In this document: piece after piece, positions 5,306 through 60,291 of the stretch
Position numbering within the stretch: position 1 is the stretch's first letter
Layout of the letters: each line of letters begins with the position of its first letter
NCBI GenBank assembly: GCA_043820815.1
Contig: JBDRDJ010000031.1
Coordinates: forward strand, 36,015-100,014
DNA from: Candidatus Omnitrophota bacterium
Lineage (GTDB): Bacteria; Omnitrophota; Gorgyraeia; Duberdicusellales; 4484-171
Direction of reading: 5' to 3'
Length of the DNA stretch: 64,000 bases
The notes under the pieces: generated by a model
Seen by the model: only the letters and a program-made list of their open reading frames with translations
What the model was told of the DNA's origin: nothing
Databases searched by the model: none
Program-made: the position numbers and the translations under genes

Positions 5306-5934
5306 TGCTTCTTAAAACCTTTGGGAAAAACTTTCTCTTTTTTAATCAAAAATACTATGTAATTCCCCAAAGCCGGGCCGAATAAATTAGCAAAACCGTT
5401 TAATGCCTTAAGGAGGCAAAACTCAAGTTTTGTTTTTGCCACCTTATGAATGGCAAAAAAACGCCTTAAGTCATACTTTAAAAATAGAGCTTTGCTCAAT
5501 TTCACAACATCGCGCTTATTAAAACGGTAAACATAGTTTCCGTGCTCGATTTCGTATTCACTTGCCCAGCCTAATTTCTCAAACAATCTCGTAAGCCAAG
5601 TATCATTTGGCTCAATTACTATAAGCCCTTCTTTCGCAACACGCAAAAGCTCATAAACTCCTCTTGCGGGCTCTTTTAAATGGTGAAGGCTGGCGGCAAT
5701 GACCACATAATCAAAAGAATTGTCTTTAAAGGCTAAATGTTGATTGTCAGTTAAAATAAACAATTCATCGGAGAAATTTGATTGGGATTTCTCCATAGCC
5801 TTCGTATTGATGTCGCTAAAACACACCTTCTTAGGATTATAAAACTTCTTTATGTAATGGGCATCGATGCCGCAGCCGCTGCTTGCAACTAGAAGCGTCT
5901 TGTTGCTTAAGCTAAGATTGTTGTCATCTAACAT
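5302..5934 (-). CDS. Class I SAM-dependent methyltransferase; the N-terminus is possibly truncated or frameshifted (see finding)
   Basis: 210 aa with LLVASSGCG (motif I) and DYVVIAASLHHL. The same reading frame stays open for 41 codons upstream, back to the GT4 stop codon. Confidence 0.75.
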   Translation of the reverse strand: MLDDNNLSLSNKTLLVASSGCGIDAHYIKKFYNPKKVCFSDINTKAMEKSQSNFSDELFILTDNQHLAFKDNSFDYVVIAASLHHLKEPARGVYELLRVAKEGLIVIEPNDTWLTRLFEKLGWASEYEIEHGNYVYRFNKRDVVKLSKALFLKYDLRRFFAIHKVAKTKLEFCLLKALNGFANLFGPALGNYIVFLIKKEKVFPKGFKKQ

Positions 5935-6020
5935 TTTTTTAAGCCTTATAAAAGGAACCGCCCGGAAATAATCATGAAAGTAATTATTTTCGTAAATAAA
6001 AGGACTGTCCCAAGAATAGG

Positions 6021-6030
6021 TTTTTTTTTT
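6021..6030 (-). repeat. A10 (T10 on plus) homopolymer tract between the GT4 stop and the methyltransferase ATG
   Basis: Direct reading: 6021-6030 tttttttttt. It is one of only two homopolymer runs of 10 nt or more that I saw in the window; the other is the T11 tract at 59817-59827. Confidence 0.95.
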
Positions 6031-6057
6031 CTTTAGGCTCAGCGATACTTTCTTTAT

Positions 6058-7287
6058 TTATACACATAATTTCTCCTCTCTGGGGACTTGGGTTTTATCT
6101 TTCATTTGCAAAGTGTATTTATTTAAAGTATCCTTATATATCCCTATTAATATTTCATAGTTTTTCTCTTCAGAATACTTTCTTCCATATTCTTTCCTGG
6201 CTTCTTCTCCCATCTGGCGCATTTTATCGGGATTTTTCCATGCCCATTCAATTTTAGAGGCAAGATCTTTTGGATCTTTAACATTAAAAAGCAGGCCCGT
6301 TTTTCCATCTTCAACAAGCTCGCTCATACCGCCGACCCTTGCGGCTATAACGGGAACCGAGCAGGCAAAAGACTCAACCACTGTACGAGGAACTTGCTCA
6401 TAAACCTCGGAGGGAAAAATAAGAAAAAGGGCACTACGTAAACATTCAAACTTTTTCTGATCGGACAATCTTCCTAATACTTCAATATTACCTCTTCCTT
6501 TTGCCCTTTCTTTTAACTTGCTATACATATATCCGTCGCCGATTATTTTAACCTTTGATTCTGAAAAATTTTCATAAGAAGAAAATAAAGTTTCAATACC
6601 TTTATAACCGAACAACCTTCCTATATATAAACCATAGCTTTTATCATTAGCATTGTCTTTTCTCTCTAAACTAACAAAATTTGGGCAAACCGCTATTTTA
6701 TTTTTGGATAAACCAAGATTTATGAATTTATTTCTACTGTAATTGCTTGCAGCAATATATGTCTGAATCTTTTCTTTAAATGTTTTCTTTTTGTGATGAT
6801 ATCTTAACAAACAAACCATGCATAAGGTTTGAAAAAAAGAACCCTTGCCGCAAAAATTAAACACAGCTGGTAAGAAATTACCCCCAAAGCATTCTTCACA
6901 TATTTTATCGTCTCTAAAGAATTTGCCTTTGTTTGGACAAAACATCCTGTGGTTATGCAACGACTGAACAACCGGAATATTGCAATCAGCCAGCGCACTA
7001 TAAACCGAAGGGCTAACCATAAAAAAAATATTATGAATATGGGCAATGTCAGGCTTTTCTTTCTTAACGATATCTTTTATTTCTGAATAGGTCTTTTTAG
7101 ACCAAATCATTTCATTTTTTAGGAGATTAATTCTTTTAAACAATGGAAATTTATCGATCTCTCTGTTTGATCGTTGATATAATATTACCTCGTGTCCGTA
7201 CTTTCTAAGCATTTGAACCTCTGAAGCAACAACAGACTCTTCTCCTCCTTCATATACGTAACAACAATGAATATTTAATATCTTCAT
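6058..7287 (-). CDS. GT4-family (GT-B, retaining) glycosyltransferase
   Basis: 409 aa. C-terminal EVYEQVPRTVVESFACSVPVIAARVGGMSELVEDGKTGLLF matches the GT4 EX7E-region pattern. Confidence 0.85.
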   Translation of the reverse strand: MKILNIHCCYVYEGGEESVVASEVQMLRKYGHEVILYQRSNREIDKFPLFKRINLLKNEMIWSKKTYSEIKDIVKKEKPDIAHIHNIFFMVSPSVYSALADCNIPVVQSLHNHRMFCPNKGKFFRDDKICEECFGGNFLPAVFNFCGKGSFFQTLCMVCLLRYHHKKKTFKEKIQTYIAASNYSRNKFINLGLSKNKIAVCPNFVSLERKDNANDKSYGLYIGRLFGYKGIETLFSSYENFSESKVKIIGDGYMYSKLKERAKGRGNIEVLGRLSDQKKFECLRSALFLIFPSEVYEQVPRTVVESFACSVPVIAARVGGMSELVEDGKTGLLFNVKDPKDLASKIEWAWKNPDKMRQMGEEARKEYGRKYSEEKNYEILIGIYKDTLNKYTLQMKDKTQVPREEKLCV

Positions 7288-34911: not shown

Positions 34912-36477
34912 TTAGTTCTTTATTTGAACGGGTCTTCCTTGATAGTTTTTTCGTATTATCCTGCGCCATATTAATTTTAATAATAGCTTAAAATAATTAG
35001 GGCCGGTTTTGCATATTTTAAAAGTTGAGAGGCCCATTATCGAAGAGCGATCCACCCAGGAAATGGGAACCTCATCCACACGATAACCAAGCAGCAAGGG
35101 CTTTAATCCTGTTTCAACATTTGCGGCAAAATCGTTTGACTCTATAATAATGCTTTTGGCAACGTGCCGGCGGAAAATTTTTAAGTTGTTAGACAAATCA
35201 CGAAACCGTTTCCCCAGAAAAATATTCGCTAGCATATGGAATGCCCGGTTAGCTATAATTTTTGTAAAGGCATAATTTACCAGCACGGAATTGCGGGAAA
35301 AACGCGACCCCACCGCCACATCGGCGCCGTTTTTAATTGCGTTGAACAAATCCCGCATTTCAGGGATTATATGCTGAAAATCACTGTCCATAATTACAAT
35401 GTATTCGCCTTTTGCCGCTTTTAAGCCATCTCTCAAGGCACGCCCCACGCCGTTAGGAGGCGCTCTTTTTATTACTTTTACCCTGTGGTCTTTTTGAGAT
35501 ATATCACTGGCAACAGAATAAGTCTTATCTGTTGAATTGTCATCAATTATTAATATTTCATAAACATACTTTCCGTAAAAGTTATTTATGTTTTCGATGA
35601 GCGGCCCGACATTCATCTCTTCGTTATGGCAAGGTATAACAAAGGAAACTCTGTCAAAAAATTCCTCATGTTCGCATAAATCGACAAAATTTGCTTTAAA
35701 GTCATCGGGCGCCGGGTTACGGGCCCAGATATAAAGAGATCCGGCAAAATTTCGCAAATAGGGCGTGTTTTCCATAATAATGCTCATATGCTGAGCCGGC
35801 CAAAGTAAAAATTTTGGCACCGGCGAATAAAGAAAATCATAAGGCAGGGTATTAATCTGGGTAAAGCCTATATCGGACAAAACAGAAAACATTTGCAAAC
35901 GGTTTAATGTAATCTGCTCAACGGGCCTCCTCCATTTAAGAGGGATTATAGTTTTTATAATTCTTCTAAGCCGGTAGTAAGGATTCCAAGGGTTAGGCTC
36001 AAATAAAAGTATGCCTCCTTTGGGCTTTAAAAGTTTTTTAACCATAATAAGGAATTCGCTGGTAAATTCGTTGTTTAGCATATGGTGAGAAATTATAAAA
36101 TCAAATTTGCCCCTTTTGGCTATGTCAAACAATTCATCCACATAATCAACATTTACATTAGCGTTTTGTAATAATGCGTCAATCTGTTTCTTGAACTTTA
36201 AAGAAAAAACACAGGCTGTTATATCACATTCTCCTCTGGTTACCCTCATAAGAGAAGCGGTAAATTTTCCGTTACCCGCCCCGATTTCAAGGATTTTTTG
36301 CCCGGGAAGAATATGAAAAAGATGGCGCATCATAGAAGAACGCCAATGCATTCTGTAATTTACAAAAGGATCAAAATTATTCCAGTATTCCACCCTGCGC
36401 CTTTCCTGTTCAGAAAGACAACTTATAAGAGCACAATCACGCGTTTCACTGAGAATTGCCGGCTTTAAAATACTCAT
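34912..36477 (-). CDS. Fusion protein: N-terminal class I SAM methyltransferase plus C-terminal Dpm1/ArnC-like GT2 (polyprenyl-phosphate glycosyltransferase type)
   Basis: 521 aa. The N-terminal part has ILEIGAGNGKFT. From ~aa 275 it reads VSFVIPCHNEEMNVGPLI...IIDDNSTDKT...IMDSDFQH. Confidence 0.8.
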   Translation of the reverse strand: MSILKPAILSETRDCALISCLSEQERRRVEYWNNFDPFVNYRMHWRSSMMRHLFHILPGQKILEIGAGNGKFTASLMRVTRGECDITACVFSLKFKKQIDALLQNANVNVDYVDELFDIAKRGKFDFIISHHMLNNEFTSEFLIMVKKLLKPKGGILLFEPNPWNPYYRLRRIIKTIIPLKWRRPVEQITLNRLQMFSVLSDIGFTQINTLPYDFLYSPVPKFLLWPAQHMSIIMENTPYLRNFAGSLYIWARNPAPDDFKANFVDLCEHEEFFDRVSFVIPCHNEEMNVGPLIENINNFYGKYVYEILIIDDNSTDKTYSVASDISQKDHRVKVIKRAPPNGVGRALRDGLKAAKGEYIVIMDSDFQHIIPEMRDLFNAIKNGADVAVGSRFSRNSVLVNYAFTKIIANRAFHMLANIFLGKRFRDLSNNLKIFRRHVAKSIIIESNDFAANVETGLKPLLLGYRVDEVPISWVDRSSIMGLSTFKICKTGPNYFKLLLKLIWRRIIRKNYQGRPVQIKN

Positions 36478-58604: not shown

Positions 58605-58679
58605 TCGGGGCGAGCAGATTTGAACTGCTGACTTCTTGGTCCCGAACCAAGCGCTCTAGCCAAGCTGAGCCACGCCCCG
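58605..58679 (-). tRNA. tRNA-Pro(CGG): tRNA-Pro, anticodon CGG, 75 nt, with no encoded CCA
   Basis: Manual fold of the minus strand: acceptor CGGGGCG/CGCCCCG (C1:G72, typical for Pro), D stem GCTC/GAGC, anticodon stem CTTGG/CCAAG with loop TTCGGGA, T stem AGCAG/CTGCT with loop TTCAAAT, and discriminator A. Confidence 0.9.
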
Positions 58680-58701: not shown

Positions 58702-59292
58702 TTATTTAAATAGGCTGCCTTGAGCCTGCGCTTTAAGGAGATAGTCGAATTCGGCATTAAGATAATCTCCTGTCCTTTTATATTTAAGATTTGTATGGCC
58801 GTATGTATAAGGGGTAACATCAAGGGAAAAACTTTTTGGATATATTTTCTTTACGGTTAATGATATTCCATCAATGGCCACAGAGCCTTTTTCAATAATA
58901 TATTTCCTGTATGGTGCCGGTAAGTCTATTTCCAAACTGAAATAATTATTTTGTTTATTTTTCCGCTTAAGCCGTAACTCACAATCAACATGGCCAAGAA
59001 CAAAATGCCCGCCTAACTTATCGCCAACTTTTAAAGAAACTTCCAGGTTAACGAAGCAGCCTATTGTTAACCGCTTCAGGTTTGTTGTGTCAAGCGTCGG
59101 CTTAACAGCATCGAAGAAAACTACTTTTGATTTATTCTCAACAATTGTTAAACAAACTCCGTTTACAGAAACACTGTCTGAAACAGAACAGTCTTTGCTG
59201 AAAATCCCGCTTTCAATGTCAAATCTAGTTAAGCTTCCCTTGCGGCTGATATATTTTACACAGCCGATTTCCTGAATGATTCCCGTAAACAT
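58702..59292 (-). CDS. ribE: Riboflavin synthase (alpha chain)
   Basis: 196 aa with MFTGIIQEIG... and the internal duplication (GDSVSVNGVCLT / GSVAIDGISLT) typical of RibE. Confidence 0.9.
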   Translation of the reverse strand: MFTGIIQEIGCVKYISRKGSLTRFDIESGIFSKDCSVSDSVSVNGVCLTIVENKSKVVFFDAVKPTLDTTNLKRLTIGCFVNLEVSLKVGDKLGGHFVLGHVDCELRLKRKNKQNNYFSLEIDLPAPYRKYIIEKGSVAIDGISLTVKKIYPKSFSLDVTPYTYGHTNLKYKRTGDYLNAEFDYLLKAQAQGSLFK

Positions 59293-59375
59293 AGTGATAT
59301 TTTGCTTTTTACCGCAAGAACCGTTTTAGCTGTCAATTTTTTAATTACAGGGGAAAATTGTGGCATATTGTTAAG

Positions 59376-59384
59376 ATTATACCA
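59376..59384 (-). promoter_or_regulatory. Extended -10 promoter candidate (TGGTATAAT) ~85 nt upstream of ribE
   Basis: Minus strand reads aatgTGGTATAATcttaac. The -35 region is poor. Confidence 0.35.
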
Positions 59385-59483
59385 CATTGCCGTTATAAAT
59401 CTATATGATTTATAATCAGCAAAAGCGATTGATTTTAAAGGATAATCGATAGCTGATCTAAAGATATAGCTCCAAAAACCCCG

Positions 59484-59519
59484 AAAAAAATAAACCGCAG
59501 ACTCGACAGATTTCCGCGG
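59484..59519 (-). terminator. Terminator-like hairpin plus T-run in the long region upstream of ribE
   Basis: Minus strand reads CCGCGGA-aatctgtcgag-TCTGCGG followed by TTTATTTTTTT. The stem is 7 bp with one G-U pair. Confidence 0.4.
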
Positions 59520-59614
59520 GATTTTATGAATTATAAAATTTTCTAATGATAATTTAAAAATTAGAAAACCCGCCGCCAAAATTTATACTGGCACAGCCGC
59601 GATGTTTAATGACT

Positions 59615-59648
59615 AAAAAACCCCGCACTGAAAACAGTGCGGGGTTTT
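59615..59648 (-). terminator. Rho-independent terminator, bidirectional in form
   Basis: Plus strand reads aaaaaa CCCCGCACTG aaaa CAGTGCGGGG tttt: a perfect 10-bp GC-rich stem with a 4-nt loop, with a T-run on the minus strand after the small ORF. Confidence 0.9.
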
Positions 59649-59670
59649 AAAATAAAAATCTTATGATGCC

Positions 59671-59727
59671 TTACTTTTTCTTTTTCTTAGCTACTTTTTT
59701 CTTAGCGGCTTTTTTCTTTACTGCCAT
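59671..59727 (-). CDS. 18-codon poly-lysine small ORF (MAVKKKAAKKKVAKKKKK)
   Basis: Own translation. AAGGAGGTGA lies 3 nt upstream of the ATG (GGAGG core spacing 6). A near-consensus promoter lies upstream and a strong terminator ~23 nt downstream. The ORF is too short for the ORF track. Confidence 0.55.
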   Translation of the reverse strand: MAVKKKAAKKKVAKKKKK

Positions 59728-59777
59728 TTGTCACCTCCTTTTAAACTGTAACAACAATAAATATCACCTTATATTTT

Positions 59778-59806
59778 AATTTAACAAATTAAACAAGGTA
59801 TGTCAA
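59778..59806 (-). promoter_or_regulatory. Sigma70-type promoter: TTGACA-N17-TAAATT with a TGT extended -10 and an upstream A-tract (UP-like)
   Basis: Minus strand reads ttgAAAAAAAAAAAcgaaaaagtaTTGACAtaccttgtttaattTGTTAAATTaaaat, ~50 nt upstream of the small ORF. Confidence 0.6.
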
Positions 59807-59904
59807 TACTTTTTCGTTTTTTTTTTTCAAAATTTTTTAGAAACAGCTGAAGGAAAAATCTGGAGAGAAGACTGGCGGTTAGAGAAAAAATAAAAAGTGA
59901 TTGC

Positions 59905-60291
59905 TCAACGGAGGCGCTTTGCGGTTTTCCATAGCTCCTCGAGCCTGTAATAATTTCTTTTTTCTTCTGTAAAGATATGCACGATTACATCGAAGCAATC
60001 AATTAGTAACCATTGCCGCGAATCATCTTTTTCCCAATGGTGTACAGCAATATTGTTTTCTTTACAGTTTCTAACTATTTCTTTGCATATTGCGTCTATT
60101 TGCGGCGGTGTGTCACCTGAGCAAATTATAAAATAATTTCCCAAGATAGGAAAATCTCTGACATCAAGAATTACCGGCCTCTGCGCCTGCTTGTTCTTGG
60201 CGAATTCAACTATCTTTCGGGCTTTAAGCCTGCTTTCTGAAGCTTTTCGTGGAATAGTTTCTCCTCCTAGACAAATGTTTTTAGAAATCAA
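59905..60291 (-). CDS. rsfS: Ribosome silencing factor RsfS (iojap family)
   Basis: 128 aa with ILDVRDFPILGNYFIICSGDTPPQIDAI...WLLIDCFDVIVHIFTEEKRNYYRLEELW. Confidence 0.85.
   Translation of the reverse strand: MISKNICLGGETIPRKASESRLKARKIVEFAKNKQAQRPVILDVRDFPILGNYFIICSGDTPPQIDAICKEIVRNCKENNIAVHHWEKDDSRQWLLIDCFDVIVHIFTEEKRNYYRLEELWKTAKRLR

Follow-up and report, generated by a model that had tools for sequence, protein, structure and literature searches.

A putative free-standing 18-codon micro-gene for a lysine-repeat peptide in a Candidatus Omnitrophota bacterium

Results

An 18-codon unit between rsfS and ribE

Contig JBDRDJ010000031.1 of a Candidatus Omnitrophota bacterium (assembly GCA_043820815.1) contains a very short candidate gene whose predicted product consists mostly of lysine. 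The gene lies on the minus strand of the 64,000-nt stretch of DNA that we analysed (forward-strand positions 36,015 to 100,014 of the contig, hereafter the window), and all coordinates given without a locus name are those of the window. An earlier note on this DNA had described a unit made of an A-tract, a TTGACA-N17-TAAATT promoter with a TGT extension, a Shine-Dalgarno (SD) sequence, an open reading frame (ORF) and a GC hairpin with a T-run. Upon reading positions 59400-60100, we found every one of these elements on the minus strand where it had been placed, base for base.

The ORF (59671..59727, with the ATG at 59727 and the TAA at 59673-59671) has 18 codons followed by a stop and codes for MAVKKKAAKKKVAKKKKK. 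It is preceded by an extended SD sequence, AAGGAGGTGA (59740-59731), identified from the sequence and from its duplex energy, that ends 3 nt before the ATG and is part of a 5′ untranslated region of about 44 nt (59728..59771), the transcription start being inferred to lie near 59771. A promoter scan identified a sigma-70-type promoter (59778..59806) with the −35 hexamer TTGACA at 59806-59801 and the −10 hexamer TAAATT at 59783-59778; the 17-nt spacer ends in the extended −10 element TGT (59786-59784), and the scanner scored the site 10 out of 12 with the TG present. Farther upstream, the A/T-rich region AAAAAATTTTG-A11-CGAAAAAG (59809..59840), in which the A11 tract (59827-59817) is part of a longer A/T-rich stretch, is a possible UP element. 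An intrinsic terminator, AAAA-CCCCGCACTG-TTTT-CAGTGCGGGG-TTTTTT (59615..59648), begins 22 nt past the stop codon. Its 10-bp G+C stem (59644-59635 and 59630-59621) carries a TTTT loop, is preceded by four A and is followed by a T6 tail (59620-59615); the hairpin has a free energy of −24.7 kcal/mol, and when the full transcript is folded as an ensemble its stem is paired with a probability of about 1. The hairpin is absent from the output of the consensus terminator scanner, probably because pairing of the four A with the T-run extends the stem and leaves too few unpaired T. The symmetry of the A- and T-tracts would make the terminator bidirectional.

The predicted peptide reads M-AV-KKK-AA-KKK-VA-KKK-KK, with lysine at 11 of 18 positions and no acidic residue, and has a computed mass of 2.04 kDa, a pI of about 11 and a net charge of about +10.5. 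Given the alanine at position 2, Met1 is predicted to be removed, which would leave a 17-aa product, AVKKKAAKKKVAKKKKK, composed of three and a half pentamers of the form KKK plus two small residues and bearing a net charge of about +11. As the earlier note had it, the unit lies between rsfS upstream (59905-60291, minus strand; PF02410) and the riboflavin synthase gene ribE downstream (58702-59292, minus strand; two Lum_binding domains, PF00677), and is separated from the latter by the terminator and about 320 nt.

The unit stands out against the composition of the window

The window has a single match to the codon pattern ATG-N6-(AAR)3-N6-(AAR)3-N6-(AAR)2, and 100 dinucleotide shuffles gave no match at all. 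Among 2369 small ORFs (10-60 codons, six frames), the ORF of the unit is the richest in lysine plus arginine, and it is one of three in which a K+R fraction of at least 0.4 is combined with an SD sequence. The duplex of its SD sequence with the 3′ tail of 16S rRNA (−17.3 kcal/mol, compared to a mean of −5.0 kcal/mol for 55 long ORFs) is the strongest or tied for the strongest among the starts tested, one alternative start having the same value of −17.3 kcal/mol. The fold of the transcript is far more stable than that of shuffled sequences (z = −5.7), mostly through the terminator. Promoter-like hexamer pairs are common in this AT-rich window, where 11 were found for 9.0 expected, so the promoter call rests on its score, its position and its recurrence in relatives. 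The ORF is not a chance product of AT-rich sequence, and the unit very probably represents a real, strongly expressed 18-codon gene, the level of expression being deduced from its signals.

Related micro-ORFs occur in many phyla

We scanned one genome per species for the codon pattern given above and obtained at least 120 loci; the genome-scan figures below hold among the matches listed, and prevalence is a lower bound. Once homopolymer runs, matches internal to other genes and long proteins had been removed, 48 ORFs remained, that of the window included. The pattern itself forces the initial methionine, nine lysine codons and their spacing, and our tests were limited to the features that it leaves free. 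There are thus at least 48 free-standing ORFs of 15-38 aa with the form M-[A/P]-x-KKK-xx-KKK-xx-KKK..., in hosts of 30-75% GC. A random AT-rich coincidence, which the earlier note had allowed for, is at odds with this recurrence in many phyla over such a range of GC contents, and at 70% GC the chance expectation of the codon pattern is essentially zero.

Two other Omnitrophota genomes carry relatives, MAVKKKAAKKKVAKKKPAKKKAAKKKTAKKKKK (L089) and MVVKKKAAKKKVAKKKVAKKKKK (L108). Other bacterial carriers belong to Planctomycetota, Verrucomicrobiota, Acidobacteriota, Eisenbacteria, Bdellovibrionota, Leptospira, Gammaproteobacteria and lineages of the candidate phyla radiation (CPR), besides a metagenome-assembled genome (MAG) labelled Nitrospiraceae, while archaeal carriers include DPANN, Methanomassiliicoccales and two unclassified archaeal MAGs. 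Six alphaproteobacterial MAGs, three of them labelled Reyranella, encode almost the same peptide (MAAKKKAAKKKAAKKKKQ in five; the sixth ends in I). Two copies on different contigs were found in one Bdellovibrionota FG-2 genome (L025 and L033, 22 and 21 aa) and in one Pacearchaeota MAG (L061 and L120, 22 and 53 aa), indicating that the micro-gene can be multi-copy.

None of ten relatives of 21-38 aa was present upon exact look-up in a collection of 15 billion proteins, a homology search with a 47-aa relative gave no scored match in the protein collection, and the window peptide, padded to 20 aa, had no match in Pfam or NCBIfam. A search of the PDB with a 33-aa relative found only the K/A-rich linker of a SigA chain (E = 1.6), and the literature searched contained neither the sequences of the relatives nor a description of free-standing lysine-repeat forms of 15-40 aa. 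The free-standing gene form of 15-40 aa therefore appears to be undescribed; the lysine-rich module itself is known. The claim that no described family has this sequence holds in so far as no model or paper was found for the free-standing micro-ORF, and fails for the composition and pentamer period, which are those of H1-like proteins, Hc2 and 'PAKKA' tails (PMC2848022, PMC3643593, PMC10739243).

The class shows signatures of a translated product

Features left free by the search pattern point to selection on a peptide. In the 48 listed ORFs, residue 2 is alanine in 40 and proline in 6, both of which permit removal of methionine. The residues between the lysine triplets are limited to A, T, V, G, S and P, with no D or E, and the class as a whole is composed of 59% K and 26% A, the remainder being T, V, P, G and S. 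GC-rich proteomes normally favour arginine. In genomes of at least 60% GC, K nevertheless outnumbers R by 57 to 2, a ratio judged at unforced positions, CGN patterns having a chance expectation about 100 times higher than the lysine-codon pattern. TAA serves as stop codon in 37 of the 48 ORFs, and 64% of the listed genome matches are preceded by an SD-like site, often extended (GGAGGTGA), compared to a fraction of 0.21 in a control set of viral contigs.

The share of AAA among lysine codons falls with the GC content of the genome (Spearman −0.87) and is zero above about 67% GC, where the residue is still lysine and all codons are AAG. Since codon choice follows GC while lysine is kept, it is the amino acid that is conserved and not an A-rich RNA. 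No run of A in the class is longer than 6, compared to 9-10 expected in AT-rich genomes after codon shuffling (Wilcoxon P = 1e-6), as would be expected if slippery A-runs were selected against in an accurately made product. Ribosome sliding on consecutive lysine codons, of which the earlier note had warned, thus seems to be a hazard that the class actively avoids.

The viral contigs were searched with the same pattern, and the matches listed were passed through one automatic filter that was also applied to the genome loci: among them, 1 of 116 viral and 35 of 113 genome loci passed, and alanine at residue 2 was found in 7 of 121 viral and 67 of 113 genome matches. Five viral contigs (L187, L195, L227, L230 and L274) share an identical C-terminus, ...MKAKKKAVKKKAKKK, in frame with 51 upstream codons and without an SD sequence, which looks like the lysine-rich tail of a small phage protein and not like a member of the free-standing class.

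Substitution patterns agree with translation. The earlier note had proposed a comparison of synonymous with non-synonymous sites, which, carried out pairwise within clades at unforced codons, gave 30 synonymous and 14 non-synonymous differences; these pairs are non-independent, and a single C-terminal Q/I difference together with a single repeat-rich pair accounts for most of the non-synonymous changes. The Eisenbacteria ORFs are 96-100% identical, with 45-55% identity in the upstream flanks and 66-75% over the 90 nt downstream. The Omnitrophota ORFs L089 and L133 differ by two synonymous changes, and their terminator stems, read from the alignment, differ at two complementary positions. A multiple alignment of the whole cassette across relatives was uninformative outside the ORF owing to shifts of repeat register. 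As far as sequence comparison can show it, the class is under selection at the coding level.

This evidence bears directly on the suggestion, also made in the earlier note, that the functional product is RNA: an A-rich (AAR)n small RNA or protein sponge, acting for instance on the distal face of Hfq, with an incidental or secondary ORF. Both AAG and AAA fit the ARN motif, and a hairpin with a U-run closes the transcript; these two features are hallmarks of Hfq binding. The stability of the fold relative to shuffled sequences (z = −5.7), for the most part due to the terminator, would also suit a functional RNA. We nevertheless consider this improbable. The ATG, a well-spaced extended SD sequence, an Ala or Pro codon at position 2 and the TAA are conserved, and the frame is kept beyond the forced codons; K is preferred over R, the GCN, ACN and GTN spacers are conserved, and the amino acid stays fixed as codon choice follows genome GC. 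Moreover, no Rfam model matched above threshold, all 17 weak hits falling at or around the terminator hairpin, and the class extends to CPR and to archaea, DPANN among them.

The opposite strand could in principle encode a Phe/Leu-rich hydrophobic peptide, such as a membrane peptide of the type I toxin kind, and a 38-aa ATG ORF is indeed present there (plus strand, 59663-59779; MMPYFFFFLATFFLAAFFFTAICH...). This ORF has no SD sequence and runs against the orientation of the promoter and terminator. In the class, only 36 of 48 loci have an antisense ORF over the region, in inconsistent frames, mostly with GTG or TTG starts and with an SD-like site in 9 only. We find such a gene scarcely credible and rejected it, as neither frame, start nor SD sequence is conserved.

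The cassette recurs in variable neighbourhoods

A promoter of their own was found in the three closest relatives listed and a terminator in two of them. At L015 the promoter has the same hexamers as in the window (TTGACA-17-TAAATT) and a terminator is present; L108 has TTGCAA-16-TATATT, preceded by a similar upstream tract, AAAAAATTTTTGAAAAAAA, and a 16-pair terminator; L089 has TTTACA-17-TAAAAT and a hairpin without T-run. The neighbouring genes differ at every locus, and none is related to lysine or to the ribosome. They are PFK and a CT398-like gene at L108, VIT1 and NTase-HEPN at L089, nrdJ in the alphaproteobacterial (Reyranella-type) group, the genes for 5-formyltetrahydrofolate cyclo-ligase and rpiA in Steroidobacteraceae, and secA in CPR. 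From this comparison, the micro-gene cassette is judged to be self-contained. The rsfS neighbourhood is not conserved in the relatives and so offers no hint of function.

In the six alphaproteobacterial loci (L016, L023, L052, L081, L097 and L119), the micro-ORF follows the gene for class II ribonucleotide reductase at a distance of 77-78 nt, and the 20-nt 5′ flank of the micro-ORF is nearly invariant (GCTAACCATAGGAGACAGTT). A crude search for a hairpin plus T-run did not detect a terminator of this kind at these six loci, and the micro-ORF may be co-transcribed with nrdJ there. One locus labelled Candidatus Planktophila lacus (L079, GC 0.64) shares with the Steroidobacteraceae both the GC content and the gene order 5-formyltetrahydrofolate cyclo-ligase, micro-ORF, rpiA, and is probably mis-binned.

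Gene context also bears on whether the ORF is a lysine-sensing leader peptide, in which the speed of the ribosome over the 11 lysine codons would set the terminator and control ribE or other downstream genes. The arrangement of an SD sequence, a short ORF rich in one codon, a stop and a terminator is that of thrL, hisL and pheL, and Rfam models of Thr and Leu leaders gave weak hits at the hairpin (21-23 bits). These hits cover the hairpin only and lie far below the gathering scores (Thr_leader, 21-23 bits against 55; Leu_leader, 22 against 50). No upstream segment pairs with the 5′ arm of the terminator at better than −7.3 kcal/mol, compared to −24.7 kcal/mol for the hairpin, leaving no antiterminator. 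The same-strand downstream genes, where identified, are ribE, rpiA, secA, a TetR-family gene after nrdJ, a CT398-like gene and NTase/HEPN; they are different at each locus and unrelated to lysine, and in the window about 320 nt with a promoter-like site separate the terminator from ribE. Attenuation is highly improbable, and we rejected it for want of an antiterminator and because the downstream genes are variable and unrelated.

We also weighed the view that the unit is a non-functional by-product, generated by slippage or decayed from a gene for a lysine-rich tail while retaining expression signals. Pentamer repeats do expand and contract easily, as in Hc2 (PMC2848022), and the exact 18-aa unit has no orthologue in the collections searched. 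Such an origin is very improbable given that the promoter, the maximal SD sequence and the perfect terminator are all intact and that a compact cassette recurs in two other Omnitrophota and in many phyla with signatures of purifying selection.

The lysine-rich module also forms tails of larger proteins

Searching metagenomes for M-[A/V]-V-KKK-AA-KKK-VA-KKK yielded 48 loci, 31 of which encode a 122-123-aa HU protein (PF00216) with the N-terminal tail MAVKKKAAKKKVAKKK (L122, L124, L127, L129 and 27 more; e.g. L122:2162-2530). This tail equals the first 16 residues of the window peptide, an identity forced entirely by the pattern of the scan. One group of JGI metagenomes (Ga03162xx) is rich in HU with this tail. 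The other 17 loci contain repeat ORFs of up to 63 aa, 16 of them free-standing (26-63 aa) and one running off the contig end. An HU gene was not found in the 64-kb window.

Among the genome matches listed, this module is joined N-terminally to HU (L010, L050 and L093), SWIB (L002, L014 and L044), CarD (L024 and L062), DksA (L074 and L088), sigma-70 region 1.1 (L094) and Rho (L099), and to no ribosomal protein. Fusions of the form M-x-x-KKK-xx-KKK in unrelated phyla suggest a mobile 'tail' module. The longer pure-repeat relatives (63-253 aa) have HC2 (PF07382) as their sole Pfam match, at 12-32 bits and E-values down to 1.8e-7, the gathering score of this model being 40 bits; the 18-mer padded to 20 aa and relatives of 23-33 aa did not match PF07382.

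These fusions help to weigh two other identities of the product. One is a ribosome-associated micro-protein that fills a pocket of the rRNA, like bS22, bL37, Thx and eL41. Its size, extreme basicity, very strong translation signals and missing annotation parallel those of Borrelia bS22, a product of an unannotated 93-nt gene with 61% K/R whose authors predicted further cases (PMC10618245), and the unit lies directly downstream of rsfS. We consider this identity unlikely, as the length of 15-38 aa varies by whole pentamers, even within Steroidobacteraceae (16 and 21 aa), and the sequence of the class is a pure repeat with near-zero arginine, unlike the known ribosomal micro-proteins, which have fixed, non-repetitive sequences. 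The adjacency to rsfS is common to no relative, and the module is found on HU, SWIB, CarD, DksA, sigma and Rho but on no ribosomal protein among the matches listed. Searches against NCBIfam, Pfam and the ribosomal chains of the PDB gave no match, with the low power of low-complexity queries of 18-33 aa.

The other is a ligand for polyanions in general that would act chiefly on a partner other than DNA: either RNA, in the role of a chaperone or a modulator of translation, or granules of polyphosphate. The H1-like proteins PhaF, AlgP and Hc2 have been reported with partners other than DNA: AlgP has a role in the spacing of polyphosphate granules (PMC9239181), PhaF activates translation and binds RNA, for which it has an intrinsically disordered region (PMC12818456), and Hc2 binds RNA with high affinity (PMC2848022). 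The RNA-binding Rho is also one of the fusion partners. However, most of these partners (HU, SWIB, CarD, DksA and sigma) are associated with DNA or RNA polymerase, and nothing in the window suggests polyphosphate or RNA metabolism, which makes a partner other than DNA quite unlikely.

Other features around the unit

The RsfS protein of the window is 100% identical to an NCBI entry labelled 'Candidatus Omnitrophota bacterium', and the next homologue is only 47% identical. The locus of the latter (L001) contains no K-rich small ORF. Downstream of its rsfS, at about 5650-6150, we read by eye a tRNA-like sequence followed by two to three tandem copies of an element of about 130-150 nt (…GGTGTTAGGCCATCGAGGCCGTCACACCAAGCTTTCTATTAATAACGCAAGG…CACTGAAAACAGTTATTTAAAACAGAATGAAGTTTTCAGTA…).

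Between the terminator of the unit and ribE lies a 107-aa TTG ORF (59256-59579) that looks spurious and has no Pfam match. The interval 59293-59614 (minus strand) contains a promoter-like TTTAAA-17-TATAAT at 59558-59530, and 59285-59530, which covers most of the stretch up to ribE, is more stable than shuffles (z = −3.8). An Rfam scan of 59293-59614 found neither an FMN riboswitch nor another Rfam family upstream of ribE, and this interval may be an undescribed ribE leader. A tRNA-Pro (CGG) gene (58605-58679, minus strand) sits between ribE and a ROK-family gene and is the only feature to pass its gathering score with Rfam 15 over the whole window, where the hits in the unit are sub-threshold.

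Discussion

The unit has the anatomy described above, and the class to which it belongs exists broadly. We propose, with a probability of roughly 0.55, that its product is a minimal stand-alone polycationic nucleic-acid-binding peptide of the H1/Hc2 type, expressed at a high level from a monocistronic micro-gene. Transcription from a near-consensus sigma-70 promoter, helped by A/T-rich DNA upstream of it, would yield an RNA of about 155 nt carrying the strongest SD sequence of the window, the 18-codon ORF and an efficient intrinsic terminator. Removal of Met1 would release AVKKKAAKKKVAKKKKK as a free H1-like/Hc2-type tail, which would bind polyanionic nucleic acid, most probably nucleoid DNA, by non-specific electrostatic contacts. 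Present in abundance, it would be a counter-ion or condensing agent that the cell encodes in a gene of its own. Both this physiological role and the choice of DNA as target are proposed by analogy. The comparative evidence lends support to an independent, strongly expressed micro-gene for a polycationic nucleic-acid-binding peptide, as the earlier note had suggested; the membrane activity that it had also considered is unsupported, as the peptide has no hydrophobic face.

Several points weigh against this proposal. Expression is deduced from signals in the sequence, and the source is an uncultured MAG. The relatives were ascertained by a pattern that forces the methionine, nine lysine codons and their spacing, and the 16 residues shared with the HU tail are likewise forced by the metagenome search. 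Low-complexity sequences can converge, so that function is transferred here by analogy and the class need not be one homologous family. The PF07382 model is not matched at its gathering score of 40 bits. No fetched locus shares the rsfS/ribE synteny next to the micro-ORF, and no orthologue of the exact 18-aa unit, or one with the same neighbours, was found in the collections searched, which leaves any estimate of conservation at this particular locus subject to ascertainment. As a free peptide of 17 residues, the product may not persist for long in vivo, and the computed results are compatible with DNA, rRNA or other RNA, and polyphosphate as targets.

H1-like lysine-rich tails are known only within larger proteins or as proteins of at least 100 aa, and the gene in the window codes for the tail alone, in 18 codons, with the strongest translation signals in 64 kb. 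If it is expressed as these signals suggest, cells hold an abundant encoded oligocation that is invisible to standard pipelines: gene callers drop ORFs of less than 30 aa, low-complexity filters mask the sequence and trypsin destroys the peptide. Such a product would bear on nucleoid compaction and the neutralisation of nucleic-acid charge in small-genome lineages, on the origin of H1-like tails and their movement between proteins, possibly as a free-standing module that was later fused, and on the practice of micro-protein annotation. A far broader and rather doubtful idea is that (KKKxx)n micro-genes provide a near-ubiquitous, unannotated oligolysine polycation of very high copy number, either a protamine- or polyamine-like counter-ion of the nucleoid or a new rRNA-bound ribosomal micro-protein. 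If true, a layer of charge homeostasis or chromatin in bacteria and archaea (CPR, DPANN, Omnitrophota) would have been missed by gene callers and tryptic proteomics.

Among known systems, the leader peptides thrL, hisL, pheL and leuL resemble the unit in that an SD sequence is followed by a very short ORF consisting largely of one codon family and then by an intrinsic terminator. They differ from it by their antiterminator and by the cognate biosynthetic operon downstream, whereas the context of the unit is variable and its Rfam scores are sub-threshold. The ribosomal micro-proteins bS22, bL37, Thx and eL41 are close to the window peptide in size and basicity (24-33 aa, more than 50% basic) and are often unannotated. 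These tiny proteins are of fixed length, non-repetitive and Arg-rich, with hydrophobic anchors, unlike the class described here, which is a repeat of variable length with almost no arginine. Of these, bS22 was found only by cryo-EM density and a translated-nucleotide search (PMC10618245).

Another likeness is to the lysine-rich tails of HU and Ku. Such tails are the N-terminal extension of Deinococcus HU and the 'PAKKA' tails of mycobacterial HupB and Ku, and the HU tail encoded on 31 metagenome contigs is identical to residues 1-16 of the window peptide. Unlike these tails, the module in the window is encoded alone, with its own promoter, SD sequence and terminator. About 3 µM of the synthetic peptides Ku-A4 and Ku-P4, which are built of AAKKA and PAKKA repeats, is enough to condense plasmid DNA (PMC10739243). 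We take them to consist of four repeats, or about 20 aa, which places the window peptide in their size range with a denser charge.

The H1-like proteins that we used as references are Chlamydia Hc2 (PF07382), Bordetella BpH1, Pseudomonas AlgP and PhaF, and the N-terminal domain of Streptomyces DdbA. Hc2 is made of Lys-rich pentamers with A, V, T or P (PMC2848022), and the H1-like pentapeptide domain of DdbA, which is fused to DksA, binds and condenses DNA (PMC3643593); proteins of this group bind or condense DNA or RNA electrostatically (PMC2848022, PMC3643593). They are 100-350 aa long, each pentamer has two basic residues, and a non-repeat domain is usually present as well, whereas the window peptide, of 18 aa, has three lysines per pentamer and no further domain. 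Sequences of such low complexity do not allow homology to be established, and binding or condensation of nucleic acid by the window peptide is suggested by analogy with the fusion partners and with the in-vitro behaviour of AAKKA and PAKKA repeats. The likeness extends to the combination of Lys with Ala, Val, Thr and Pro, the lack of acidic and aromatic residues, the pentapeptide period of charge, the use of Lys rather than Arg even at high GC, and a repeat number that is evolvable. The window peptide falls within the pentapeptide definition of the H1-like/Hc2 class taken from PMC2848022, namely basic residues with Ala, Val, Thr or Pro and no acidic residue.

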